Assembly: GCA_014859225.1 (NCBI GenBank)
Contig: JACUUP010000001.1
Coordinates: 1 to 46,456 of the forward strand
DNA from: Candidatus Aerophobota bacterium
GTDB taxonomy: Bacteria > Aerophobota > Aerophobia > Aerophobales > B3-G15
Length of the DNA stretch: 46,456 bases
Direction of reading: 5' to 3'
A program made the position numbers and the translations under genes. The notes beneath the pieces were generated by a model. The model was not told where the DNA came from. It made no database searches and saw only the letters and a program-made list of their open reading frames with translations. This document shows positions 5,163-17,533 of this stretch, one piece after another. Numbering within the stretch: the first letter of the stretch is position 1; each line of letters opens with the position of its first letter.

Positions 5163-5855
5163 TTATTCATCTTTGTCCCTACGCTCCTGCACCTTTCTTT
5201 TTATCCTTTCCATCATGTCTTTCAACTTCTGTGTTTGTTTTCGCTCCTCTTCTGTTTTTGGTTCAAGCTCAGGTCTTGTTACTCTCCAGGTAACCTTTCT
5301 ACACACAGCATCTTCAGGATAAGCACCAGGGTCATAAAGAGTGTAGTCCCTGAATTTTGTGGACTTTTCCTGATAACAGGACCATACTGCCTGTCTTATA
5401 ACATCAGGATGCCCCTCATTTAGAAGATTGACGAGGGACACCTGTTTTCTTAACCTTTCCACTATCTCCGAAGGGATATTAAATAGATAAGGTGTTGGAG
5501 CCTTTGCTCCGATAATTTTCTTTCTCTCATCTATCCCATTTTTAAAAAGCTTCATAAGGGCATCACCTGTTGCATGGCCAGGAGATTCAGGTCCGGCAAG
5601 CACAAGATAACGGATATTGGGATTTGCCACCAGGTTACAGACCATCTTCTCTATCCCGATGTTCTCTGTTTGAAGAGTTCCAGATAAGGCGGCTCCCGCC
5701 TCAACTCCCACCCTTACCAGATTTTCAATGTCAGGGGGAATATTATCATAAGGATAGTTCAGAATAATCACCACTGCAACAGGTGATAGGTCATTTCCTC
5801 TCAGGTAATGCCCTTCTTCTGGGGGATAATCAGCCGGGGGTTGAATTTTTCGCAT
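5163..5855 (-). CDS. soluble MtrA-like corrinoid-binding protein (homologue of tetrahydromethanopterin S-methyltransferase subunit A)
   Basis: 230 aa. ...SPVAVVIL...GTLQTENIGIEKMVCNLVANPNIRYLVLAGPESPGHATGDALMKLFKNGIDERKKIIGAKAPTPYLFNIPSEIVERLRKQVSLVNLLNE aligns with my recollection of MtrA ([41 protein letters not shown]...), including the GH histidine. The C-terminus is a K/E-rich tail rather than the membrane helix of MtrA. Confidence 0.75.
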   Translation of the reverse strand: MRKIQPPADYPPEEGHYLRGNDLSPVAVVIILNYPYDNIPPDIENLVRVGVEAGAALSGTLQTENIGIEKMVCNLVANPNIRYLVLAGPESPGHATGDALMKLFKNGIDERKKIIGAKAPTPYLFNIPSEIVERLRKQVSLVNLLNEGHPDVIRQAVWSCYQEKSTKFRDYTLYDPGAYPEDAVCRKVTWRVTRPELEPKTEEERKQTQKLKDMMERIKRKVQERRDKDE

Positions 5856-5874
5856 TAGCTCTCTCTTGTAGAAT

Positions 5875-6309
5875 TTATGCCTCTTTCAGAGCATCTACAA
5901 TTAAGTTTTTTGCCTTCTCCACATCTTCCTGAGAAATATACTCCATTAAGGGTTTTAGACTCTTTCCAATATCCTCATGAAGCGCTTTTTTCTTCATCCC
6001 TATATCTCTTGCCAGGACAAAACTTTTGGTTGGTTTAAATCCTGCCTCTTCCACCACTTTTCTTGAGCACTCACTGGGACATCCATCAACGGTAATTATT
6101 TTCTTTGCTGCCTTTGTCTTACCATGAACGGGAGGCACGCCTACCGGAAGTCCAGCCAGGCATCCTATTGCTACTTTATCAAGACCAACTTCTTTCACTG
6201 CTTCCATGCTGGCAAGCGCTGCAACAATTCCTGTATTAGAGAGTCCTCCAAAGCAGTTAAAAATGATATTTTCATGCGTTGGCATTCCTTCTTTCCATTC
6301 TGGCATCAT
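5875..6309 (-). CDS. DGC-domain putative zinc-binding protein
   Basis: VDGCPSEC (the DGC motif) plus two further Cys (NCFGG, IGCLAG). I prefer the ATG at 6309, which follows AAAGGAGGAAGA. That ATG overlaps the stop of the upstream thioredoxin-fold gene (ATGA). The track start at 6327 would overlap by 22 nt. Confidence 0.65.
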   Translation of the reverse strand: MMPEWKEGMPTHENIIFNCFGGLSNTGIVAALASMEAVKEVGLDKVAIGCLAGLPVGVPPVHGKTKAAKKIITVDGCPSECSRKVVEEAGFKPTKSFVLARDIGMKKKALHEDIGKSLKPLMEYISQEDVEKAKNLIVDALKEA

Positions 6310-6545
6310 TCTTCCTCCTTTAACCATTTCTTTATTTTATCAGGTGAGGCAATCTCCCCTGAACATTTAATTTTGCCATCAATGGCAAGCGCCGGAGTCA
6401 TCATCACCCCGAACTTACTAATTTCTCGTACATCTTGCACCTTTTCAATCTCGGCTTCAATACCAAGCTCTTCAATTGCTTCCCTGGCATTTGCCTCTAA
6501 TTTCCTGCATTTTGCACAACCTATTCCAAGGACTTGGACTTTCAT
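6306..6545 (-). CDS. small thioredoxin-fold protein (redox-active disulfide protein 2 / Thioredoxin_3 type)
   Basis: 79 aa. MKVQVLGIGCAKCRKLEANAREAIEELGIEAEIEKVQDVREISKFGVMMTPALAIDGK has the CxxC (CAKC) and the family's typical layout. Confidence 0.8.
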   Translation of the reverse strand: MKVQVLGIGCAKCRKLEANAREAIEELGIEAEIEKVQDVREISKFGVMMTPALAIDGKIKCSGEIASPDKIKKWLKEEE

Positions 6546-6577
6546 ACTATCACCCTCCTTACGGTGTTTTTTTTATT

Positions 6578-7612
6578 TTAAAATACAAATGTTCCAAAAA
6601 TCATCCCGATAAAAGTGGACATAATAACAACTAAACCTATGTAAACAAGTGCCCTCTTTGTCCCCATAATACTTCTTATCACCAGCATATTAGGAAGGGA
6701 AAGTGCAGGCCCTGCAAGAAGAAGAGCCAGGGCAGGCCCTCGTCCCATACCCAAATCAAGAAAAGCTCTTAAGATGGGAACCTCGGTTAAGGTGGCAAAG
6801 TACATAAGAGCCCCGGCAACTGATGCTATGAAATTAGACCTTAGGGCATTTCCTCCCACCCAGGTCCTTATCACCTCAGGTGGTAAATACTCCCTGATTA
6901 TCCCGGCAGCAAACACTCCCACAAGAAGCCAGGGCAAAATAAGCCTGGTAAACTGCCAGGTTGCGGCAAGCCAGGATACAACTTCCTCTTTGCTGAACCA
7001 GAGCTTCAGCAGGATGACCAGGAAAACAAGTAACGCCACCACTATCCACCACCTCCCCCAGGCACCAAAAATGAGAATTGCTACGAGGTCGGCAAAAAAC
7101 AAAAGGGTTACAAGGGGATTTTTCCGGGAATCGTCAGTATCAGCTGTAAGGACAAACTCCTTTTTCTTCCCTTTCTCCCTTTTTTCCTGGAATAATTTTG
7201 CCATTATAAGTCCAATAATGATGGAAAAGCCAACTGCTCCAATTGCTCGTGCTATACCAAGCTCTATCCCTAAAAGACGTGCAGAGTAAATAATGGCAAG
7301 AAGGTTGATGGCAGGCCCTGAGTAGAGAAAAGTCGTGGCAGGGCCTATGCCTGCTCCCATAGTATATATCCCGGAGAAAAGGGGAAGAATCGTGCAGCTA
7401 CACACAGCAAGCACTGTTCCTGCAACCGATGCGATAGCGTAGGATAGGAATTTATTGGCAGATGGACCAAAATATTTTAAAATTACCTCCTTTTTGACCA
7501 TGCTGCTTATTGCCCCGGCTATGAAAAATGCAGGAACAAGACAGGTCAAAACATGAGCCGAGAGATACTCAAGTAGTGCCCTTGCCCCTGATAAGAAAAC
7601 GGATACGAACAT
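6578..7612 (-). CDS. ArsP-like (PF03773/DUF318-type) permease
   Basis: 344 aa and polytopic. AVCSCTILPLF keeps the vicinal Cys pair of the ArsP TPFCSCS motif. Lies immediately downstream of arsR. Confidence 0.75.
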   Translation of the reverse strand: MFVSVFLSGARALLEYLSAHVLTCLVPAFFIAGAISSMVKKEVILKYFGPSANKFLSYAIASVAGTVLAVCSCTILPLFSGIYTMGAGIGPATTFLYSGPAINLLAIIYSARLLGIELGIARAIGAVGFSIIIGLIMAKLFQEKREKGKKKEFVLTADTDDSRKNPLVTLLFFADLVAILIFGAWGRWWIVVALLVFLVILLKLWFSKEEVVSWLAATWQFTRLILPWLLVGVFAAGIIREYLPPEVIRTWVGGNALRSNFIASVAGALMYFATLTEVPILRAFLDLGMGRGPALALLLAGPALSLPNMLVIRSIMGTKRALVYIGLVVIMSTFIGMIFGTFVF

Positions 7613-7669
7613 TCATTTCTCCTTTTTATGATTCAATGGTCAGCTTAGCATATAGTGTGCAAAAAAATT

Positions 7670-7981
7670 TTAAGTTAACAGGGCCATTTTTTCCTTTACC
7701 AGTTTTTTTACAAAAGATAAAACAAGCTCAAGTATTTTAAACACATTGTCATCCTGCACCCGGTAGTAAACACTTACTCCCTCCTTTCTTGAGGAAAGTA
7801 TCCCGGCTCTTTTTAAAGCAGCAAGATGACGGGAGACATTGGATTGCTCTTCTCCTAAGTAAGGAAAAATCTCGCACACACATCTTTCCCCTTCCCTCAG
7901 GTAGTTAACAATTCTTATTCTTGTGGGATGCGAGAGTGCCTTCAAATACTCAGCCTGTGCCTCATACACCCTCTGGTTCAT
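7670..7981 (-). CDS. arsR: ArsR/SmtB family metal(loid)-responsive repressor
   Basis: 103 aa. LKALSHPTRIRIVNYL...ERCVCEI...SNVSRHLAALKRAGIL is a winged HTH with the CVC alpha-3 site of As(III)-type ArsR. Confidence 0.9.
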   Translation of the reverse strand: MNQRVYEAQAEYLKALSHPTRIRIVNYLREGERCVCEIFPYLGEEQSNVSRHLAALKRAGILSSRKEGVSVYYRVQDDNVFKILELVLSFVKKLVKEKMALLT

Positions 7982-8609: not shown

Positions 8610-8939
8610 ATGAGACTAAATGAAAAGGAGGAACTTGCACTGAGAAAATTTAGATCGACAATAGAAAAAGTATTAGGAGGTAATCTTGTAGAAGTAAAGT
8701 TGTTTGGCTCCAGAGTTCGTGGAGACGCTCGGAAGGACTCTGATATAGATGTACTAGTAATCATATCAAGTGGTGACTGGCGGATGCGGGATGTAATTTA
8801 TGACATAGCTACTGATGTACTTCTTGAAACTGAAGTTTGCATATCTCCAAAGGTTATCAACAGAAAGGAGTATGAGTATCTTTCCAATATAGGAGCTCCT
8901 TTTATAACAAATGTTATTCGAGAAGGAATTACAGTATGA
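8610..8939 (+). CDS. MNT-type nucleotidyltransferase (antitoxin of HEPN/MNT type VII TA)
   Basis: 109 aa. LFGSRVRGDARKDSDIDVLVI is the GS-x-RG...DxD minimal nucleotidyltransferase motif. GGAGGA RBS. Stop overlaps the HEPN start (ATGA). Confidence 0.85.
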   Translation: MRLNEKEELALRKFRSTIEKVLGGNLVEVKLFGSRVRGDARKDSDIDVLVIISSGDWRMRDVIYDIATDVLLETEVCISPKVINRKEYEYLSNIGAPFITNVIREGITV

Positions 8940-9325
8940 ACGAAAGGGAGTGGGCTAATAAAGAATTGATACGGGCTAAAAAGGCTCTTCTTGCGGCAAA
9001 GACGCTATTAGAGAAAGATTTGTTTGAGGATTGTGTCTCCAGAGCTTATTACGCTGTCCTTCATGCTGCAAAGGCAGCTTTGACCTTATCTAAAATTGAA
9101 GTGGATACCCATAATGGAGTACGAAGAATGTTTGGCCTTCATCTTGTTAAAACGGGAAAAATAGAGAAAGAATTTGCGAAAATACTCACAAGAGAGCAAG
9201 AAGATAGAGAAATGGGAGACTATGAAGTTGGTGTCGAAATAGAAGAAGAAACAGCAAGACAAAGAGTTAATGAGGCTGAGAAATTTATACGAAGAATTGA
9301 ACAATACCTTCAGGTAACTAAGTAA
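8936..9325 (+). CDS. HEPN domain protein (toxin of HEPN/MNT TA)
   Basis: 129 aa. SRAYYAVLHAAKA contains the Rx4-6H HEPN motif. All-helical composition, paired with MNT. Confidence 0.85.
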   Translation: MNEREWANKELIRAKKALLAAKTLLEKDLFEDCVSRAYYAVLHAAKAALTLSKIEVDTHNGVRRMFGLHLVKTGKIEKEFAKILTREQEDREMGDYEVGVEIEEETARQRVNEAEKFIRRIEQYLQVTK

Positions 9326-9355: not shown

Positions 9356-9394
9356 GGCTCTCTCATCTATAAAACAGGAGTGGTGGCTATTTTT
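9356..9394. repeat. 39-bp direct repeat, copy 2
   Basis: GGCTCTCTCATCTATAAAACAGGAGTGGTGGCTATTTTT. It includes the stop codon and last 5 nt of the 9387-10058 gene. Confidence 0.9.
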
Positions 9395-10058
9395 TCTCTC
9401 CTGTCTCATCCTTGTTTCCCACTATCTTATCCACAACTTTTTTCCAGGAGGTAGATTCGCCACCGAATCCTTCATAAAAGAAGCGATAATCGTGTTTTCT
9501 AATAAACTCTTGGAGCTGAAAAAGATGTTCCTGTAAGGTGTGCAACTGACACTGCTTGAAGATTTCCTTTTCTTCCTCTCTGGCTAATCTTGAACAAATC
9601 ACCAGGAAATGTTGCATACAAAGTCCAAAACTTTGCTGATAGAGATTCTGAAAATCCTTTTCAGGAAAATTTTTTAAAAAGATACTGATATATCGCTCCT
9701 CAACCTCATCGGAAAACCTACAAACCGGACACCCTTTCCCAGGATAAGAAATTTCTGCTCCTTTTTCTATTTTCTCCCTGAGAATTGAGCAAATATCCTC
9801 GTAGATTATTGCTATACCCAGGGGCTTTCCCACCTCTTTGGCTAATGTGGCATGTCTTGGGCAGAACCCATACGATTTTCTCAATTTCTCCCTAACCCCG
9901 GGGTCATTGACCAGTTCATAAAAAAGAGTGTCCATAAAGGAGAGCTCAGACTTTTTAATAAGAAAACAAACAGGGCATGTGTTTTCTTTCATAGCCTCCA
10001 GAAGTTCAAAATAGCTGCTGTCATAAAAACTTTCGTTTCTCTGTTTTTCTTTTCCCAT
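9387..10058 (-). CDS. uncharacterised protein with two CPVC...(F/L)CxxH modules (possibly DUF6062-like; family name from memory, unverified)
   Basis: 223 aa. C28-P-V-C31...C66-P-R-H69 and C110-P-V-C113...C147-M-Q-H150 have near-identical spacing (34-35 residues). It sits downstream of a fluoride riboswitch. Confidence 0.8.
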   Translation of the reverse strand: MGKEKQRNESFYDSSYFELLEAMKENTCPVCFLIKKSELSFMDTLFYELVNDPGVREKLRKSYGFCPRHATLAKEVGKPLGIAIIYEDICSILREKIEKGAEISYPGKGCPVCRFSDEVEERYISIFLKNFPEKDFQNLYQQSFGLCMQHFLVICSRLAREEEKEIFKQCQLHTLQEHLFQLQEFIRKHDYRFFYEGFGGESTSWKKVVDKIVGNKDETGEKK

Positions 10059-10143
10059 TTTGTGCCTTACAGGTTAAAAATCAAAAGTCTTTGGAAAAAT
10101 ATGTAATCTCCCCCAGAGCTCATGTAAACATAGCTTATGTTTT

Positions 10144-10229
10144 AAATAAAAAACCCCTACTTTTAAAAAGTAGGGGTTATCATCCTGCACTAATTTGCAG
10201 GCAGTTAAGGGTGAACCCCATCACCTTGA
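10144..10229 (-). promoter_or_regulatory. fluoride riboswitch (crcB motif) with intrinsic-terminator expression platform
   Basis: Minus-strand RNA: AAGGUGAUGGGGUUCACCCUUAACUGCCUGCAAAUUAGUGCAGGAUGAUAACCCCUACUUUUUAAAAGUAGGGGUUUUUUAUUU. P1 is GGUG/CACC around an 8-nt loop AUGGGGUU. The conserved AACUGCC is present. P3 is CCUGCA/UGCAGG, followed by GAUGAU...CCUAC. The pseudoknot pairs GGGGUU with AACCCC. It aligns column by column with my recollection of the Thermotoga petrophila aptamer (GGCGAUGAGGCCCGCCCAAACUGCCCUGAAAAGGGCUGAUGGCCUCUAC). The 3' pseudoknot strand is also the 5' arm of the terminator stem, as in an ON switch. Confidence 0.8.
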
Positions 10230-10248
10230 TTTATTGGGCTTGAGAGAC

Positions 10249-10276
10249 ATTCTAATTACTTTCAAGCTTAAGTCAA
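10249..10276 (-). promoter_or_regulatory. promoter driving the riboswitch leader
   Basis: On the minus strand: TTGACT (10276-10271), 16-nt spacer, TAGAAT (10254-10249), about 15-20 nt upstream of the aptamer. Confidence 0.55.
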
Positions 10277-10324: not shown

Positions 10325-10633
10325 TTATTCTGTTTTCACTATCTGCATACCCATTATCCTTACTCCACCCTCTGTCCTCATGGACAAAGTCGCCGGCTTC
10401 GTAATAAGGCACTGTCCTTCTCTGATGGTTATCTTTTCCTCGTCCACCGTCACCTCAGCTTCTCCCTCAACAACATAAAAAATGACATGAGAAGACATCT
10501 CACAAACTGGAATTTTGTCCCCGGGAGATAGTGCAATAATTAATGTCTTAAATTCCTTTGCCTTATGAAAAACATTCTTTTGCCTCTCTTCATACGGGTA
10601 TGCGGTCATTGTTTTGAGGTCAAATACCTGCAT
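10325..10633 (-). CDS. cupin domain protein
   Basis: 102 aa. SSHVIFYVVEGEAEVTVDEEKITIREGQCL is typical of a small monocupin beta-barrel. Overlaps the upstream permease gene. Confidence 0.7.
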   Translation of the reverse strand: MQVFDLKTMTAYPYEERQKNVFHKAKEFKTLIIALSPGDKIPVCEMSSHVIFYVVEGEAEVTVDEEKITIREGQCLITKPATLSMRTEGGVRIMGMQIVKTE

Positions 10634-11192
10634 TATTTTCTTCTCCTTTTTTAGATTTGTTCATTTTTTTATCGCCCCATTCAACTACTCGTTCTATAAA
10701 AAACCCCATGGCGGCCACCAGGATAATAGTTAGAATGAGTCTGGTAGCCATAAATCCGAATCCTAAAAATTGTAGCTCCACCATCTCCTGAGGAATCTTT
10801 ATGCACGCCCAGGCAGATAGAAAAATAACTATATTGGAGATACTTGCCCCTTTTTTAATGAGAGCCGAAGCTAAAGGAAACGCCACATAAAGAGGACCTG
10901 TGGGAAGCGCACCAAAAAGGATTGCCACAAAGATACCCTTTGTACCTGAAGTTTTGCCCAAATACTTTACCACAAGCTCCCTGGAGATAAAAACACTGAA
11001 AAGACCCATTAAAACCATTACTGCAGGAAGTATCATGATCATCTCAAGAAAAAAATCCCAGGCGGTAGTAGTTACTGGTCCTTTTTTCTCCGGGAAAACT
11101 ACAATAAGAATCGCTACGAAAATCACTATTGCTGCCAGCATAGCCCAATCTCTTACCAATTTTCCTGTTTGTTTTCCTTTTTTACCCCTCAT
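10620..11192 (-). CDS. permease, second component of a two-gene PF03773-like transporter
   Basis: 190 aa with about 5 TM segments. GALPTGPLYVAFPLASALIKKGASISNIVIFLSAWACIK resembles the equivalent segment of the upstream partner. ATGA overlap with that partner. Confidence 0.7.
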   Translation of the reverse strand: MRGKKGKQTGKLVRDWAMLAAIVIFVAILIVVFPEKKGPVTTTAWDFFLEMIMILPAVMVLMGLFSVFISRELVVKYLGKTSGTKGIFVAILFGALPTGPLYVAFPLASALIKKGASISNIVIFLSAWACIKIPQEMVELQFLGFGFMATRLILTIILVAAMGFFIERVVEWGDKKMNKSKKGEENNAGI

Positions 11193-11671
11193 AGAACCGC
11201 CCCCATAATAAGAGCAATAACAATGGCAATGACAAAACTTATTCCATTACGAAGAAAAGCCATTTTCTTTCCCAGTTCTTTTATCTCCAGAGGCAAGGTA
11301 ACTGTTCCAATCATGGTCAATGTGGTGATAAATGCTGCCACGGCAGAAATTGATGCCCCGCTTTTAAGAAGCGATGCAGCAAGGGGAAAGGAGACAAGAG
11401 CTGGAATGTGCAAAACTGCCCCTACCATGGCAATAATAACTATTCCAATCAGGCCGGATTGCTCACCTATAAATTGAGAAATTTTTTCCGGTGGGATAAA
11501 TCCTAAAAGAAGACCAATGAGGATGACAATAATAAGCACAACCGGCAAAATACGCAAAAGTGATTTTGCTGCTACTATAAGAGATTTTTTTGTTTTTTCT
11601 TTGTTTTTAAAAACCGCAAAGAAAAGACAACTAAGGGCAAAGACATTTATGAAAACAGCGGTTAGACTCAT
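11189..11671 (-). CDS. permease, first component of a two-gene PF03773-like transporter
   Basis: 160 aa. AVLHIPALVSFPLAASLLKSGASISAVAAFITTLTMIG is paralogous to the partner gene. Confidence 0.7.
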   Translation of the reverse strand: MSLTAVFINVFALSCLFFAVFKNKEKTKKSLIVAAKSLLRILPVVLIIVILIGLLLGFIPPEKISQFIGEQSGLIGIVIIAMVGAVLHIPALVSFPLAASLLKSGASISAVAAFITTLTMIGTVTLPLEIKELGKKMAFLRNGISFVIAIVIALIMGAVL

Positions 11672-11704
11672 ATTTTCACCTCTATTATTAAAATTTCCAA
11701 AAAC

Positions 11705-11786
11705 AAAAAGGGGACAGATTTATTTTTTTCTTGTGGATACAACAAAGAGACACAAAAAAAGAGAAAATAAATCTGTCCCCTTTTTT
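11705..11786. repeat. long perfect hairpin element, copy A (bidirectional terminator-like)
   Basis: The arms AAAAAGGGGACAGATTTATTTT (11705-11726) and AAAATAAATCTGTCCCCTTTTT (11765-11786) are perfect reverse complements around a 38-nt loop, with T-runs on both strands. The same arms recur at 15764-15831. Confidence 0.85.
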
Positions 11787-11809
11787 TTCTTTGTGACCCC
11801 CCTGATTAT

Positions 11810-12034
11810 TTACTCTTTTTCTATTTCCTCTATCCTGTTTTTTACCGCCTCAAGTTTTTTCTCCAGTACATCCTTCATATTCCGCAAGTACTCTATCTCC
11901 TCTTCCTTAGAGACAGGGTGACAGCATCCCCAGAAAGGATGCCCCATGGGATGCACATACTGGTAAAAATGAGGATGGGGATATCCTCCCACACAACATC
12001 CTGAGTGTATGTAGCCTCCACACATAATAATCAC
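11810..12034 (-). CDS. DUF5320-like small protein with Cys/His-rich N-terminus
   Basis: 74 aa. The N-terminal half is MCGGYIHSGCCVGGYPHPHFYQYVHPMGHPFWGCCHP. The C-terminal coiled coil EEEIEYLRNMKDVLEKKLEAVKNRIEEIEKE matches the DUF5320 tail as I remember it (...LK.Q...L...L..I..RI.ELEK). Confidence 0.55.
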   Translation of the reverse strand: MIIMCGGYIHSGCCVGGYPHPHFYQYVHPMGHPFWGCCHPVSKEEEIEYLRNMKDVLEKKLEAVKNRIEEIEKE

Positions 12035-12055
12035 CTCCTGCTTATTTTTTATAGG

Positions 12056-12823
12056 CTATAGTGCCTTTATAAGATTTTTTCGGTGCAATTTAACAGCAAA
12101 AGTAAAAAATGCTATAGAAAAAGCTAAGAGCGCTATAATATTAAGAAAAACAGGGTAAAATTCCAAGCCATATAAGCTATACCTGATTAAATCCGCACTA
12201 TAAGTCAAAGGAGAGACGCTGGATACAGCCTTTCCCCAGGAAGGAAGATTCTCCAGAGGTATAAATATACCGCTTATGAAAATGAGAGGAAACCTGATAA
12301 GGGCAGAGAGCATCATTACTTGAGAGGGAGCCTCAGTTGCCGGGGAAGATAAAAGAACTCCCAGGGAGGAAAAACATAAAGAAGATAAAACCATACCCAC
12401 TAAAAAAATGGCTGAATGTAAAATGCTCGTATGGAAAAAAATAATACCTATCAAAAGAGGTGCAAAAGATATAACTATACCAAACACAAGCCCCGCAAGC
12501 ACATCACCTAAAAGAATGGCAAAAAGGGAAACAGGCGTGCTGAGGAGCCTCTCGTAGGTTCTGGCACCTCTTTCCCAGGGAGTTACTAAGGGTCCAACCG
12601 AGGAAGAGGTGAAAAAAAGGGTCATACTCACAAGCGCAGGAACAAGAATATGGGTTTGAACCTGCCTTCCCAGGGAAAAGGCTAAAAAGAAAAACACAGG
12701 AAAAAGGATGCCAAAGATTATCACCGGAGGCTTCAGATAGTAAATACGGGCATCTTTTTCCGCCACTACCAGTGAACCTCTTAAGTTGAAAATGAAATTA
12801 GAAAATCTTTGCTCTTTAAACAT
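12056..12823 (-). CDS. ABC-2 type transporter permease
   Basis: 255 aa with 6 TM segments. Immediately downstream of, and overlapping, the ATPase gene. Confidence 0.85.
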   Translation of the reverse strand: MFKEQRFSNFIFNLRGSLVVAEKDARIYYLKPPVIIFGILFPVFFFLAFSLGRQVQTHILVPALVSMTLFFTSSSVGPLVTPWERGARTYERLLSTPVSLFAILLGDVLAGLVFGIVISFAPLLIGIIFFHTSILHSAIFLVGMVLSSLCFSSLGVLLSSPATEAPSQVMMLSALIRFPLIFISGIFIPLENLPSWGKAVSSVSPLTYSADLIRYSLYGLEFYPVFLNIIALLAFSIAFFTFAVKLHRKNLIKAL

Positions 12824-13769
12824 CGGTTGTCTCCCTTTCTTCGGTAAGTTTTAGAAATACATCTTCTAAACTTGGACCCAGTGTATTAAGCGAGGTAAAG
12901 TGTAAATTATTTTTCATTGCATGTTCGCCAAGTTTCTTGATTAGCGCATCTGGATTCTGGGTGTAGAGTTTAAATTTATCACCTAATCTCTGGCATCGGT
13001 TAACCTCCGGGATGCTTTCCATCCAATTGACATCTGCAAAAGTTACGTTAAAGGAAACTTCTACCGATTGAGTCTTTTGGAAAGCACCCTTTAGTTGCTC
13101 CGGACTATCAGAGGCAACTATCCTGCCTTTGTTAATGATAGCCACTCTATCACAGAGAATATTTGCCTCATCAATGTTATGCGTGGTTAAAAAAATAGTT
13201 TTCCCTTTTGACCTTAGCTCCTGTAATATATCTCTTATCATTCTGCTACTTTTCACATCCAATCCAGAAGTTGGCTCATCAAGAAAAAGTACTTCCGGCT
13301 GATGAATTAAACACATAGCAAGAATGAGTCTTTGTTTCATCCCCCTGGAGAATCTTCTTGTTTTTTCTTCTTTTCTTTCCCAGAGGTCAAATTTTTGCAG
13401 AAGCTCTTTTGCTCTTTCCTCCCTTTCCCTTCGCTTAACAGCATACATTTTCCCCATGAGCATTATGTTATCCCGGGCAGAAAGGTCCACATACACATTA
13501 CACACCTCGGGAACAACTCCCATTATCTTTTTTGCTGCAATTGGATTTTTAAGGGTATCAATCCCTGAAACCTCAACTTTTCCCTTATCGGGCAAAAGGA
13601 TTCCCGTGACAATACGTATGGTGGTGGTCTTTCCTGCCCCATTTGGTCCCAGAAAACCAAAAATCTCACCCTTTATCACCTCAAAACTTACATTATCCAC
13701 CGCCAAAAAATCCCCATAGTATTTGGTGAGACCATGAACTTTAACTGCCACCTCTTTTTTCTCCATCAT
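12816..13769 (-). CDS. ABC transporter ATP-binding protein (DrrA/CcmA-like exporter type)
   Basis: Walker A GPNGAGKTT, signature FSRGMKQRL, Walker B VLFLDEPTSGLD, H-loop TTHNIDEA. Confidence 0.9.
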   Translation of the reverse strand: MMEKKEVAVKVHGLTKYYGDFLAVDNVSFEVIKGEIFGFLGPNGAGKTTTIRIVTGILLPDKGKVEVSGIDTLKNPIAAKKIMGVVPEVCNVYVDLSARDNIMLMGKMYAVKRREREERAKELLQKFDLWERKEEKTRRFSRGMKQRLILAMCLIHQPEVLFLDEPTSGLDVKSSRMIRDILQELRSKGKTIFLTTHNIDEANILCDRVAIINKGRIVASDSPEQLKGAFQKTQSVEVSFNVTFADVNWMESIPEVNRCQRLGDKFKLYTQNPDALIKKLGEHAMKNNLHFTSLNTLGPSLEDVFLKLTEERETTDV

Positions 13770-15857: not shown

Positions 15858-16100
15858 TCAACTTTTCTCATTCTTGAGCCATTTTTTTATTTTATCAGGT
15901 GAGGCAATCTCCCCTGAACACATGAGCTTGCCGTCAATGGCAAGAGCCGGGGTCATCATTACCCCGAATTTGCTAATTTCTCGCACATCCTGCACCTTCT
16001 CAATCTCGGCTTCAACACCGAGCTCATCAATGGCTTCCCTGGCATTTGCCTCAAGCTTTCTACACTTTGCACAACCTGTTCCAAGAATCTGAACTTTCAT
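15858..16100 (-). CDS. small thioredoxin-fold protein (paralogue of 6306-6545)
   Basis: MKVQILGTGCAKCRKLEANAREAIDELGVEAEIEKVQDVREISKFGVMMTPALAIDGK... About 90% identical by hand alignment to the cassette 1 protein. ATG at 16100 with a GGGAGGG RBS. The longer track ORF (to 16178) overlaps the permease. Confidence 0.8.
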   Translation of the reverse strand: MKVQILGTGCAKCRKLEANAREAIDELGVEAEIEKVQDVREISKFGVMMTPALAIDGKLMCSGEIASPDKIKKWLKNEKS

Positions 16101-16128
16101 ACTATTCACCCTCCCTGCCGTGTTTTTT

Positions 16129-17166
16129 TTAAAACACAAATATTCCAAAAAGCATCCCGATAAAGGTGGACATAGCAACTACTAAAGTTATGTAAACAAG
16201 TGCTCTTTTTGTTCCCATGATGCTTCTTATAACGAGCATATTCGGGAGCGAGAGCGCAGGTCCAGCAAGAAGGAGCGCTAAGGCTGGCCCTCTTCCCATA
16301 CCTAAATCGAGAAAGGCTCGCAGGATTGGAACCTCGGTCAACGTGGCAAAGTACATCAATGACCCGGCAACTGATGCTATGAAATTAGAACGTAGTGCGT
16401 TTCCTCCCACCCAGGTCCTTATCACCTCAGGTGGCAAAAACTCTCTGATTATCCCGGCAGCAAATACTCCCACAAGGAGCCAGGGCAAAATTAGCAGGAC
16501 AAACTGATAGGTTGCTGCAAGCCAGGACAAAATCTCATTCTTGGTGAACCAGATTTTCAGCACAATGACCAGGAGCACGAGCAAGCCTGTAACTATCAAC
16601 CACTGTCCCCAGGCACCAAAAATGAGGATTCCTACGAGGTCGGCAAAGAATAAAAGGACTGCAGCAGGATTTTTTGAAGGTGTTTTGGGGTCAGCTACCG
16701 GAGAAAATTTTACCTTTTCCGCATCCTTTGTCCTTTTTTTCTCAAATATAGATGACATTATAAGACCAATAACGATGGAAAAGCCAACTGCCCCAATTGC
16801 TCGTGCTATACCAAGCTCTATCCCTAAAAGACGCGCCGAGTAAATAATGGCAAGCAGATTGATAGCAGGGCCTGAGTATAAAAAAGTGGTGGCAGGACCT
16901 ATTCCTGCTCCCAGGCTGTATATTCCGGAAAAAAGGGGAAGGATGGTGCAACTGCAAACAGCAAGCACTGTTCCTGCAACTGATGCTATGGCGTAGGATA
17001 AAACCTTGTTGGCAGAAGGTCCAAAGTACTTCAAGATAATTTCTTTTTTCACCATACTGCTTATCGCCCCGGCAATAAAAAAAGCAGGAACAAGACAGGT
17101 TAAAACATGAGCCGAGAGATACTCAATGAGTGCCCTCACCCCTGATAAGAGAATGGACACTAACAT
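16129..17166 (-). CDS. ArsP-like (PF03773-type) permease, paralogue of 6578-7612
   Basis: 345 aa, collinear with the cassette 1 permease and with the same AVCSCTILPLF motif. Most differences lie in the central loop. Confidence 0.75.
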   Translation of the reverse strand: MLVSILLSGVRALIEYLSAHVLTCLVPAFFIAGAISSMVKKEIILKYFGPSANKVLSYAIASVAGTVLAVCSCTILPLFSGIYSLGAGIGPATTFLYSGPAINLLAIIYSARLLGIELGIARAIGAVGFSIVIGLIMSSIFEKKRTKDAEKVKFSPVADPKTPSKNPAAVLLFFADLVGILIFGAWGQWLIVTGLLVLLVIVLKIWFTKNEILSWLAATYQFVLLILPWLLVGVFAAGIIREFLPPEVIRTWVGGNALRSNFIASVAGSLMYFATLTEVPILRAFLDLGMGRGPALALLLAGPALSLPNMLVIRSIMGTKRALVYITLVVAMSTFIGMLFGIFVF

Positions 17167-17221
17167 TTGTTTCTCCTTTTTATGATTAAATGGTCAGCTT
17201 AGCATATATTGCGGAAAAATT

Positions 17222-17533
17222 TTAGCTTAAAATGGCGGCTTTTTCCTTTGCTACTTTTTTTACAAAAGATAAAACAAGCTCAAGTACCTTAAACACATTT
17301 TCATCCTGCACTCTGTAATAAACACTTACCCCCTTTTTCCTTGAAGAAAGTATCCCTGCTCTTTTTAAAGCAGCAAGGTGGCGCGAGATATTGGACTGTT
17401 CCTCCCCAAGATGAGGAAAAATCTCACATACACACATCTCATTCTTCCTCAAATACTCAACAATCTTTATCCTGGTTGGATGAGATAGCGCCTTGAAATA
17501 TTTTGCCTGTGCCTCATAAATTTTTCCATCCAC
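17222..17533 (-). CDS. arsR: ArsR/SmtB family repressor, paralogue of 7670-7981
   Basis: 103 aa. NEMCVCEI keeps the CVC site. 82 of 103 residues are identical to the cassette 1 ArsR by my hand alignment. Confidence 0.9.
   Translation of the reverse strand: MDGKIYEAQAKYFKALSHPTRIKIVEYLRKNEMCVCEIFPHLGEEQSNISRHLAALKRAGILSSRKKGVSVYYRVQDENVFKVLELVLSFVKKVAKEKAAILS

Follow-up and report, generated by a model that had tools for sequence, protein, structure and literature searches.

The 46,456-nucleotide stretch of DNA analyzed here (the window; contig JACUUP010000001.1 of the Candidatus Aerophobota bacterium assembly GCA_014859225.1) carries a fluoride riboswitch upstream of a gene encoding a protein of the uncharacterized family DUF6062. 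The most probable explanation of the locus, to which a probability of roughly 0.85 may be given, is that it is a transcriptional ON switch, driven from a promoter of its own, in control of a monocistronic DUF6062 gene. DUF6062 appears to be a recurrent, unstudied member of the bacterial fluoride-stress gene set, most often found beside enolase. Coordinates are positions in the window, which are also those of the contig, and both the riboswitch and the DUF6062 gene are read on the minus strand. The elements are as follows.

10271..10276, minus strand: −35 hexamer TTGACT, sigma-70-type, of the candidate promoter belonging to the riboswitch itself (consensus scan)
10249..10254, minus strand: −10 hexamer TAGAAT, with a 16-nt spacer to the −35 hexamer (consensus scan)
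10164..10234, minus strand: fluoride riboswitch aptamer (RF01734, crcB motif; Rfam covariance model)
10210..10225, minus strand: P1 hairpin, GGUG (10225-10222) with CACC (10213-10210), loop AUGGGGUU (Rfam alignment and fold)
10214..10219, minus strand: pseudoknot 5′ strand GGGGUU, within the P1 loop, pairing with 10178-10173
10184..10201, minus strand: P3 hairpin, CCUGCA (10201-10196) with UGCAGG (10189-10184) (minimum free energy (MFE) and centroid folds, Rfam alignment)
10173..10178, minus strand: pseudoknot 3′ strand AACCCC, also the first six bases of the terminator 5′ arm
10142..10178, minus strand: intrinsic terminator, AACCCCUACUUU (10178-10167) with AAAGUAGGGGUU (10163-10152), 3-nt loop, then UUUUAUUUAA (10151-10142) (terminator scan)
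9387..10058, minus strand: controlled gene, encoding a 223-aa DUF6062 protein, GenBank locus tag IBX65_00075 (open reading frame (ORF); Pfam PF19538)

An initial annotation, made from the DNA letters, had described the aptamer elements on this strand, a TTGACT-16-TAGAAT promoter and a terminator sharing the 3′ strand of the pseudoknot; all of these are present, and its interpretation of them as a fluoride ON switch in front of an uncharacterized gene is supported. The covariance search that it proposed matches RF01734 at 10234..10164 over model positions 1-64/64, with 50.4 bits (gathering score 34, E 3.9e-11), and RF01734 is the sole Rfam family matched across the 46-kb window. With a custom covariance model (R1), built from 16 Rfam-confirmed aptamers beside homologues of the downstream gene, the window aptamer scores 71.1 bits. 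In the Rfam alignment the conserved unpaired nucleotides GAUG.., AAC.GCC and.UGAUGA..CCUAC are all present, and the P3 stem comprises six pairs in both the MFE and centroid folds. By class membership (RF01734), the RNA is confirmed as a genuine fluoride riboswitch; fluoride as its ligand and ON as its logic are presumed by analogy with the class.

The terminator stem (10178..10152) has 12 pairs, five of them G-C, followed by UUUUAUUU, and is the dominant element in the MFE and centroid folds of the leader. In its predicted fold (−34.5 kcal/mol, z = −3.7 compared with shuffled sequences), the whole 114-nt leader forms P1, P3 and the terminator. Because nucleotides 10178-10173 are common to the terminator 5′ arm and the pseudoknot 3′ strand, the layout is that of a classic transcriptional ON switch. 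The same overlap recurs in 64 of 70 distinct related aptamers, as judged by a simple search for a hairpin followed by a U-run.

The structure is also supported by covariation. The alignment used here consists of 63 model matches to DUF6062-linked aptamers, 61 of them distinct, and among these P1 and the pseudoknot together are paired in 99.8% of cells, with compensatory changes in 7 of 10 pairs. Taken separately, P1 is 100% paired, with compensatory changes at three of its four pairs, and the pseudoknot is 99.7% paired, with compensatory changes at four of six; the double changes in the pseudoknot include G-C to A-U at two positions. As a control, the 3′ partners were shifted by 1-3 columns, and just 42-60% of cells were then paired. 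The compensatory changes in relatives show selection on the aptamer structure, and it is very improbable that the aptamer is a decayed relic or senses a ligand other than fluoride. The Rfam alignment does contain a non-canonical pair in the outer part of P3, which would suit a relic, but the match covers the full model at 16 bits over the threshold with every conserved single-stranded nucleotide in place, and the pseudoknot, P1, P3 and terminator are all intact.

The promoter requires the support of related loci. The pair at 10276..10249 has 10 of 12 consensus matches, but taken alone it does not exceed chance expectation, given the AT-rich surroundings: two promoter-like sites were found and 4.3 were expected. 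The call is supported because the TTGAC element and the −10 box are conserved in related leaders: in 9 of 10, TTGAC and its spacing to a TAnAAT-like box align without gaps. Across the alignment of 10 leaders the −35 TTGAC is invariant, and relatives carry TACAAT, TATAAT or TAAATT at the aligned −10 position. Both boxes are kept even where the upstream genes differ or point the opposite way.

This conservation bears on a different reading of the locus, in which the switch acts mainly as an internal attenuator of a longer operon. Upstream of the aptamer, at 10325-13769 on the minus strand, lies a set of genes encoding an ABC (ATP-binding cassette) ATPase, an ABC-2 permease, a DUF5320 protein, two half-size ArsP_1-type permeases (a split ArsP-type permease) and a 102-aa cupin, and the attenuated unit would run from the ABC-2 transporter to DUF6062. 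All six genes (13769..10325) are on the same strand as DUF6062, and no terminator-like site was found in the interval from the cupin stop codon (10325) to the aptamer. An ABC ATPase and permease lie directly upstream of the aptamer in two related loci (L002 and L103, where L numbers denote surveyed loci), a cupin occupies this position in another (L134), and in L083, where no aptamer was detected, an ABC ATPase and permease are directly upstream of DUF6062 itself. More generally, parts of the upstream operon lie beside DUF6062 in several relatives (ABC genes in L001, L002, L005, L083 and L103, a cupin in L134 and half-permeases in L119), and their recurrence suggests a linkage that is conserved beyond the riboswitch. 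However, the retention of the −35 and −10 elements in 9 of 10 leaders despite differing or opposed upstream genes points to a dedicated promoter. Attenuation as the main role is thus rather unlikely, although it is compatible with the explanation preferred here.

In that preferred explanation, a switch with its own promoter, RNA polymerase would initiate near 10242, the transcription start predicted from the DNA sequence, and transcribe the 71-nt aptamer. At low fluoride the pseudoknot would be unlocked, AACCCCUACUUU would pair with AAAGUAGGGGUU, and transcription would terminate in the U-run near 10145. At toxic fluoride levels, the F−/Mg2+ complex would lock GGGGUU:AACCCC; the locked pseudoknot would sequester the terminator 5′ arm, and the polymerase would continue into the ORF at 10058, which starts 85 nt past the U-run. 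The product would be an all-helical, two-repeat protein and, in several uncultivated phyla, an effector of the response to fluoride stress. Its probable partners are fluoride-sensitive enzymes of lower glycolysis, namely enolase and a phosphoglycerate-mutase-family phosphatase, with whose genes its own is most frequently co-transcribed.

The product of the controlled gene, which the initial annotation gave as a 223-aa protein of an uncharacterized family, matches Pfam DUF6062 (PF19538) at 78.7 bits, against a cut-off of 27, in two stretches, and its N- and C-terminal halves each exceed the cut-off separately. It is 100% identical to a database hypothetical protein of a Candidatus Aerophobetes metagenome-assembled genome (MAG), and it has no match in NCBIfam and no predicted transmembrane segment. 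With no such segment and a match to DUF6062 only, it is not a CrcB/Fluc (PF02537) or CLC-F protein. The initial annotation had also placed no crcB/fluC or CLC-F gene in the window, and this was borne out: tblastn with related-locus sequences, run with a positive control, found no CrcB, enolase, MFS, Na/H antiporter, pyrophosphatase (PPase) or other regulon gene there. Likewise, no CLC-type gene occurs among the polytopic membrane ORFs of the window, which are of the ArsP_1, ABC-2, LysE, Glycos_transf_4 and FtsX types. The next genes downstream of DUF6062 are a plus-strand nucleotidyltransferase/HEPN pair, convergent with it, and the transcript therefore carries the DUF6062 gene alone; no convincing terminator structure was found 3′ of the DUF6062 stop codon (z = −0.5). 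The convergent pair itself (8610-9325, plus strand), consisting of an NTP_transf_2 protein of 109 aa and an HEPN protein of 129 aa with overlapping start and stop codons, resembles an MNT/HEPN toxin-antitoxin module.

The halves of the protein are homologous (hhalign probability 97%, E 9e-11), which indicates an internal duplication, and each contains CPxC, about 34 residues and then G(F/L)CxxH. In an alignment of 28 homologues C66, H69, C110, C113, C147 and H150 are invariant and C28 and C31 nearly so; all eight Cys/His positions (C28, C31, C66, H69, C110, C113, C147 and H150), each present in the window protein, are invariant in 155/155 domains from the surveyed loci. The two invariant CxxC...CxxH sites can tentatively be read as, most likely, two Cys3His zinc sites. 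Further near-invariant motifs are YExVNDPGVR and E(F/L)(I/V)RK(H/Y)DYR. An AlphaFold2 model of the window protein is all-helical, with a mean predicted local distance difference test score (pLDDT) of 90 and a predicted template modelling score (pTM) of 0.83. Foldseek comparison of this model with the PDB and BFVD returned nothing at E ≤ 0.001, with TM-scores below 0.3, and a PDB sequence search with the family profile gave chance-level matches only (best E 0.03). Pfam searches at E up to 10 with the full protein, its halves and distant homologues found DUF6062 only, all other matches being at chance level. The family comprises 4,943 clusters at 50% identity at E ≤ 1e-3, or 3,529 at E ≤ 1e-10, and many cluster representatives of ~480 aa contain two DUF6062 domains.

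It may be asked whether such a protein is instead a regulator that relays the fluoride signal, as a zinc transcription factor or an anti-sigma-like partner-switch, and not an effector. DUF6062 is small, soluble and all-helical, has Cys/His metal motifs, and is the sole product of the switch in the window, all of which would suit a regulator. However, no helix-turn-helix, ZAS or other regulatory domain was detected at E up to 10, and there is no fold match to regulators. The two or three tandem paralogues per operon, the double-domain fusions and the fusions to dynamin-like GTPases are, additionally, atypical of transcription factors, and a regulatory role is accordingly improbable.

The dynamin fusions are proteins of 550-600 aa with an N-terminal Dynamin_N GTPase and a C-terminal DUF6062 domain in which the eight Cys/His are all retained (L158:4147-5946, L155:4173-5948, L129:6675-8342 and L111:4315-5967). 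They lie within fluoride-riboswitch operons and adjoin a standalone DUF6062 gene. The Pfam DUF6062 match is significant in L158 only; in L155 the domain was found by hmmsearch, with all eight ligands kept, and L129 and L111 were joined by BLAST clustering. A different candidate fusion, the 225-aa database protein P0018 with a His_Phos_1 N-terminus and DUF6062 over its C-terminal three-quarters, lacks the first CxxC and was rejected as a clue; it is probably an artefact of gene calling, a frameshift or chimera that spans neighbouring His-phosphatase and DUF6062 genes.

The initial annotation had proposed a survey of homologues, and this links the family to fluoride riboswitches well beyond the window. 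The survey comprised 160 DUF6062 loci from species-representative genomes and Joint Genome Institute (JGI) metagenomes, which were reduced to 128 distinct loci by collapsing those with DUF6062 proteins at least 95% identical; 123 distinct loci with upstream DNA were used for the association count. An aptamer was counted if it lay on the same strand, no more than 3 kb upstream, with no opposite-strand gene between. By this rule, 44 of the 123 distinct loci have an aptamer, as do 37 of the 52 whose protein is at least 35% identical to that of the window. The refuting condition set by the initial annotation, a complete lack of riboswitches at homologues in other genomes, is thus clearly contradicted. 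The association falls with distance from the window protein:

Identity of at least 55%: aptamer in 9/11 distinct loci
Identity of 35-45%: aptamer in 28/41 distinct loci
Identity below 35% (mostly Chloroflexota): aptamer in 7/71 distinct loci

Of the 20 closest loci, 14 have a fluoride aptamer on the same strand as DUF6062 according to Rfam's own model, and of 92 matches to the custom model across 1.4 Mb, 91 are on the DUF6062 strand. The carriers include Aerophobetes-like MAGs, Omnitrophota, Ignavibacteriales, UBP3, Sumerlaeota and thermophilic candidate genera, and in most loci the end of the aptamer lies 35-90 nt upstream of the DUF6062 start. The low figure in the distant clade is not an artefact of an AT-rich custom model, since none of the 11 Chloroflexota loci sampled has a fluoride aptamer by the Rfam model and a regular expression for the aptamer core found nothing beyond the custom covariance model.

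Two of the surveyed loci contain tandem fluoride aptamers about 60 nt apart, on the same strand and downstream of DUF6062 genes (L155:8303-8486 and L158:6746-6929). In L158 these precede genes for a Na+/H+ exchanger and an MFS protein, and the L155 locus stops just past them. Such pairs may represent a tandem riboswitch arrangement. Two close relatives carry, downstream of a fluoride-riboswitch/His-phosphatase/DUF6062 unit, a cobalamin riboswitch that is truncated where the contig stops (L084:3776-3905 and L085:6862-6956).

The neighbours of DUF6062, counted on the same strand within 3.5 kb among the 128 distinct loci, are as follows.

Enolase: 26/128 loci
MFS transporter: 21/128 loci
Second DUF6062: 21/128 loci
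HEAT-repeat protein: 13/128 loci
His_Phos_1: 10/128 loci
Na/H exchanger: 9/128 loci
H+-PPase: 5/128 loci
USP: 5/128 loci
DUF190-CBS: 5/128 loci

CrcB is also among them, and in homologous loci the unit of aptamer and DUF6062 is co-operonic with enolase, a Na/H antiporter, H+-PPase and USP. A recurrent order is aptamer, DUF6062, enolase and a 97-aa HEAT-repeat protein, often extended by a second aptamer, an MFS transporter, a second DUF6062, an AAA-like protein, a bacterial-PH-domain protein and a Na+/H+ exchanger. The closest, Aerophobetes-like relatives have a gene of the phosphoglycerate-mutase family (His_Phos_1) after the aptamer and before DUF6062.

The extended fluoride operons contain three further recurrent proteins that are uncharacterized: a 97-aa protein with an N-terminal CxxC...CxxC followed by HEAT repeats (L088:7233-7526), a 233-aa AAA/STAND-like P-loop protein (L142:10202-10903) and a 320-aa protein with a weak match to the bacterial PH domain (L132:10858-11823). 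Equivalents occur in L115, L117, L096, L108 and L111.

The survey bears on the possibility that DUF6062 is a general zinc, redox or proteostasis protein that has come under fluoride control in some lineages only, as have USP or MutS-like genes. DUF6062 proteins form a very large family (4943 clusters at 50% identity), and 64 of the 71 distant-clade loci are without a same-strand upstream aptamer. Additionally, in the Ktedonobacteria the gene is divergent from that of a DnaJ-domain protein and lies next to glutamate synthase. In this Ktedonobacteria-type clade (L022, L030, L042, L049, L055, L058, L059, L066, L077 and L080, all without an aptamer), DUF6062 and the gene for a 300-aa DnaJ-domain protein are divergent in every case, and DUF6062 adjoins the glutamate synthase large subunit, a context that could represent inherited synteny or a proteostasis link. 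However, five aptamer-less Chloroflexota loci (L011, L019, L028, L044 and L052) still have DUF6062 beside enolase. CrcB and DUF190-CBS are likewise same-strand neighbours in loci that lack an aptamer: in the metagenome loci L124 and L127, DUF6062 is beside both, in L152 it is beside DUF190-CBS, and in L038, where an aptamer is present on the opposite strand, it is beside enolase, CrcB and DUF190-CBS. The aptamer association also spans several phyla with differing operon layouts. A general protein is thus a possible reading, with the chances tilted against it.

Several points weigh against the explanation preferred here, a fluoride-responsive ON switch serving a fluoride-stress gene. The ligand and the ON behaviour are assigned through membership in RF01734. 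In the distant DUF6062 clade (below 35% identity, mostly Chloroflexota) riboswitch linkage is rare, and the core function of DUF6062 therefore need not be fluoride-specific. No fluoride exporter or regulon gene is on the contig, and the wider fluoride response of the organism is thus unseen. No terminator separates the promoter from the cupin gene upstream, so that transcription from the riboswitch's own promoter may be supplemented by read-through. The neighbour counts derive from a crude custom ORF caller and BLAST clusters, each named from one Pfam-scanned representative. Finally, no fold, sequence or domain relative offers a biochemical clue.

Some role for DUF6062 in fluoride tolerance is reasonably likely, and any specific biochemistry is held with much less assurance. 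A tie to enolase in particular is only hinted at. One tentative proposal, which is more apt to be wrong than right, is that DUF6062 is an unrecognized fluoride-tolerance protein with a new helical fold and two Cys3His metal sites. Such a protein might protect, assist or substitute for fluoride-sensitive phosphoryl-transfer steps instead of taking part in export, with enolase, phosphoglycerate mutase or, in the dynamin fusions, the GTPase as likely targets. If DUF6062 does protect or substitute for such steps, it would represent a new branch of fluoride resistance across several uncultivated phyla.

Elsewhere in the window, a three-gene module occurs twice on the minus strand (6306-7981 and 15858-17533). 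It encodes a 103-aa regulator of the ArsR type, an ArsP_1 permease of 344/345 aa and a small thioredoxin-like protein with a CxxC motif, and the permeases of both copies are ~79% identical to a single permease of L005. Also on the minus strand (5163-6327), a gene for a 230-aa MtrA-like protein, of the tetrahydromethanopterin S-methyltransferase subunit A family, adjoins one for a 150-aa DGC-domain protein, an unusual finding for a bacterial MAG.

To our knowledge, export by Fluc/CrcB or CLC-F is the sole well-understood fluoride defence. Non-export determinants of fluoride resistance exist and are described in reviews as poorly defined (PMC11139923). The DUF6062 locus and its relatives provide a concrete and testable candidate for fluoride defence, a large family with invariant predicted metal ligands that has been repeatedly selected behind fluoride riboswitches and beside enolase, and the family is thereby given a provisional functional setting. 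Efforts to engineer fluoride tolerance for the biodegradation or biosynthesis of organofluorines could also benefit. A full-text literature search found no paper mentioning DUF6062, a family with no described function or structure, nor was one found that combines a fluoride riboswitch with dynamin. No DUF6062-like protein is listed in the fluoride-regulon reviews consulted, and other literature searches gave general fluoride-regulon papers only. The link between DUF6062 and fluoride appears to be unreported in the literature covered, which did not extend to the gene lists of Baker et al. 2012, where it could figure as an unnamed hypothetical. The riboswitch itself is ordinary, with a textbook expression platform and nothing new for RNA biology, and the apparently new part is the identity of the controlled family.

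Among known proteins, DUF6062 recalls the ZAS anti-sigma factors and Hsp33-type redox switches, which are small, soluble proteins with invariant Cys/His clusters at helix starts. Its motif differs, however, in consisting of two copies of CxxC-x34-CxxH, and no similarity of sequence, profile or fold to these proteins was detected. The RNA is closely comparable to crcB-motif riboswitches such as the Bacillus cereus crcB leader and the Thermotoga petrophila aptamer, with which it shares P1, P3, the pseudoknot between the P1 loop and the 3′ tail, and the GAUG...GAUGA..CCUAC nucleotides. As in the B. cereus archetype, an intrinsic terminator competes for the 3′ strand of the pseudoknot, which would give an ON switch (PMC8752731). 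Unlike in these examples, the downstream gene in the window encodes the soluble DUF6062 protein and not crcB or CLC-F, and the contig carries no exporter. Control of non-transporter genes by fluoride riboswitches is nevertheless normal, and a known ‘super-regulon’ includes such genes; the neighbours of DUF6062 belong to known fluoride-regulon classes (PMC7266159, PMC11139923). A close parallel is the experimentally validated fluoride-riboswitch operon ppaC-uspA-eno-gpmA-crcB-orf5249 of Enterobacter cloacae FRM, in which the switch induces non-transporter genes that compensate for fluoride-inhibited enzymes (PMC5533749). DUF6062 is seemingly absent from that operon and from any described fluoride operon, as far as checked, and the window transcript differs from it in carrying DUF6062 only. 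In relatives of the window locus, DUF6062 is co-transcribed with enolase, the gpmA-family His_Phos_1, USP, H+-PPase and CrcB, much as in the E. cloacae operon.

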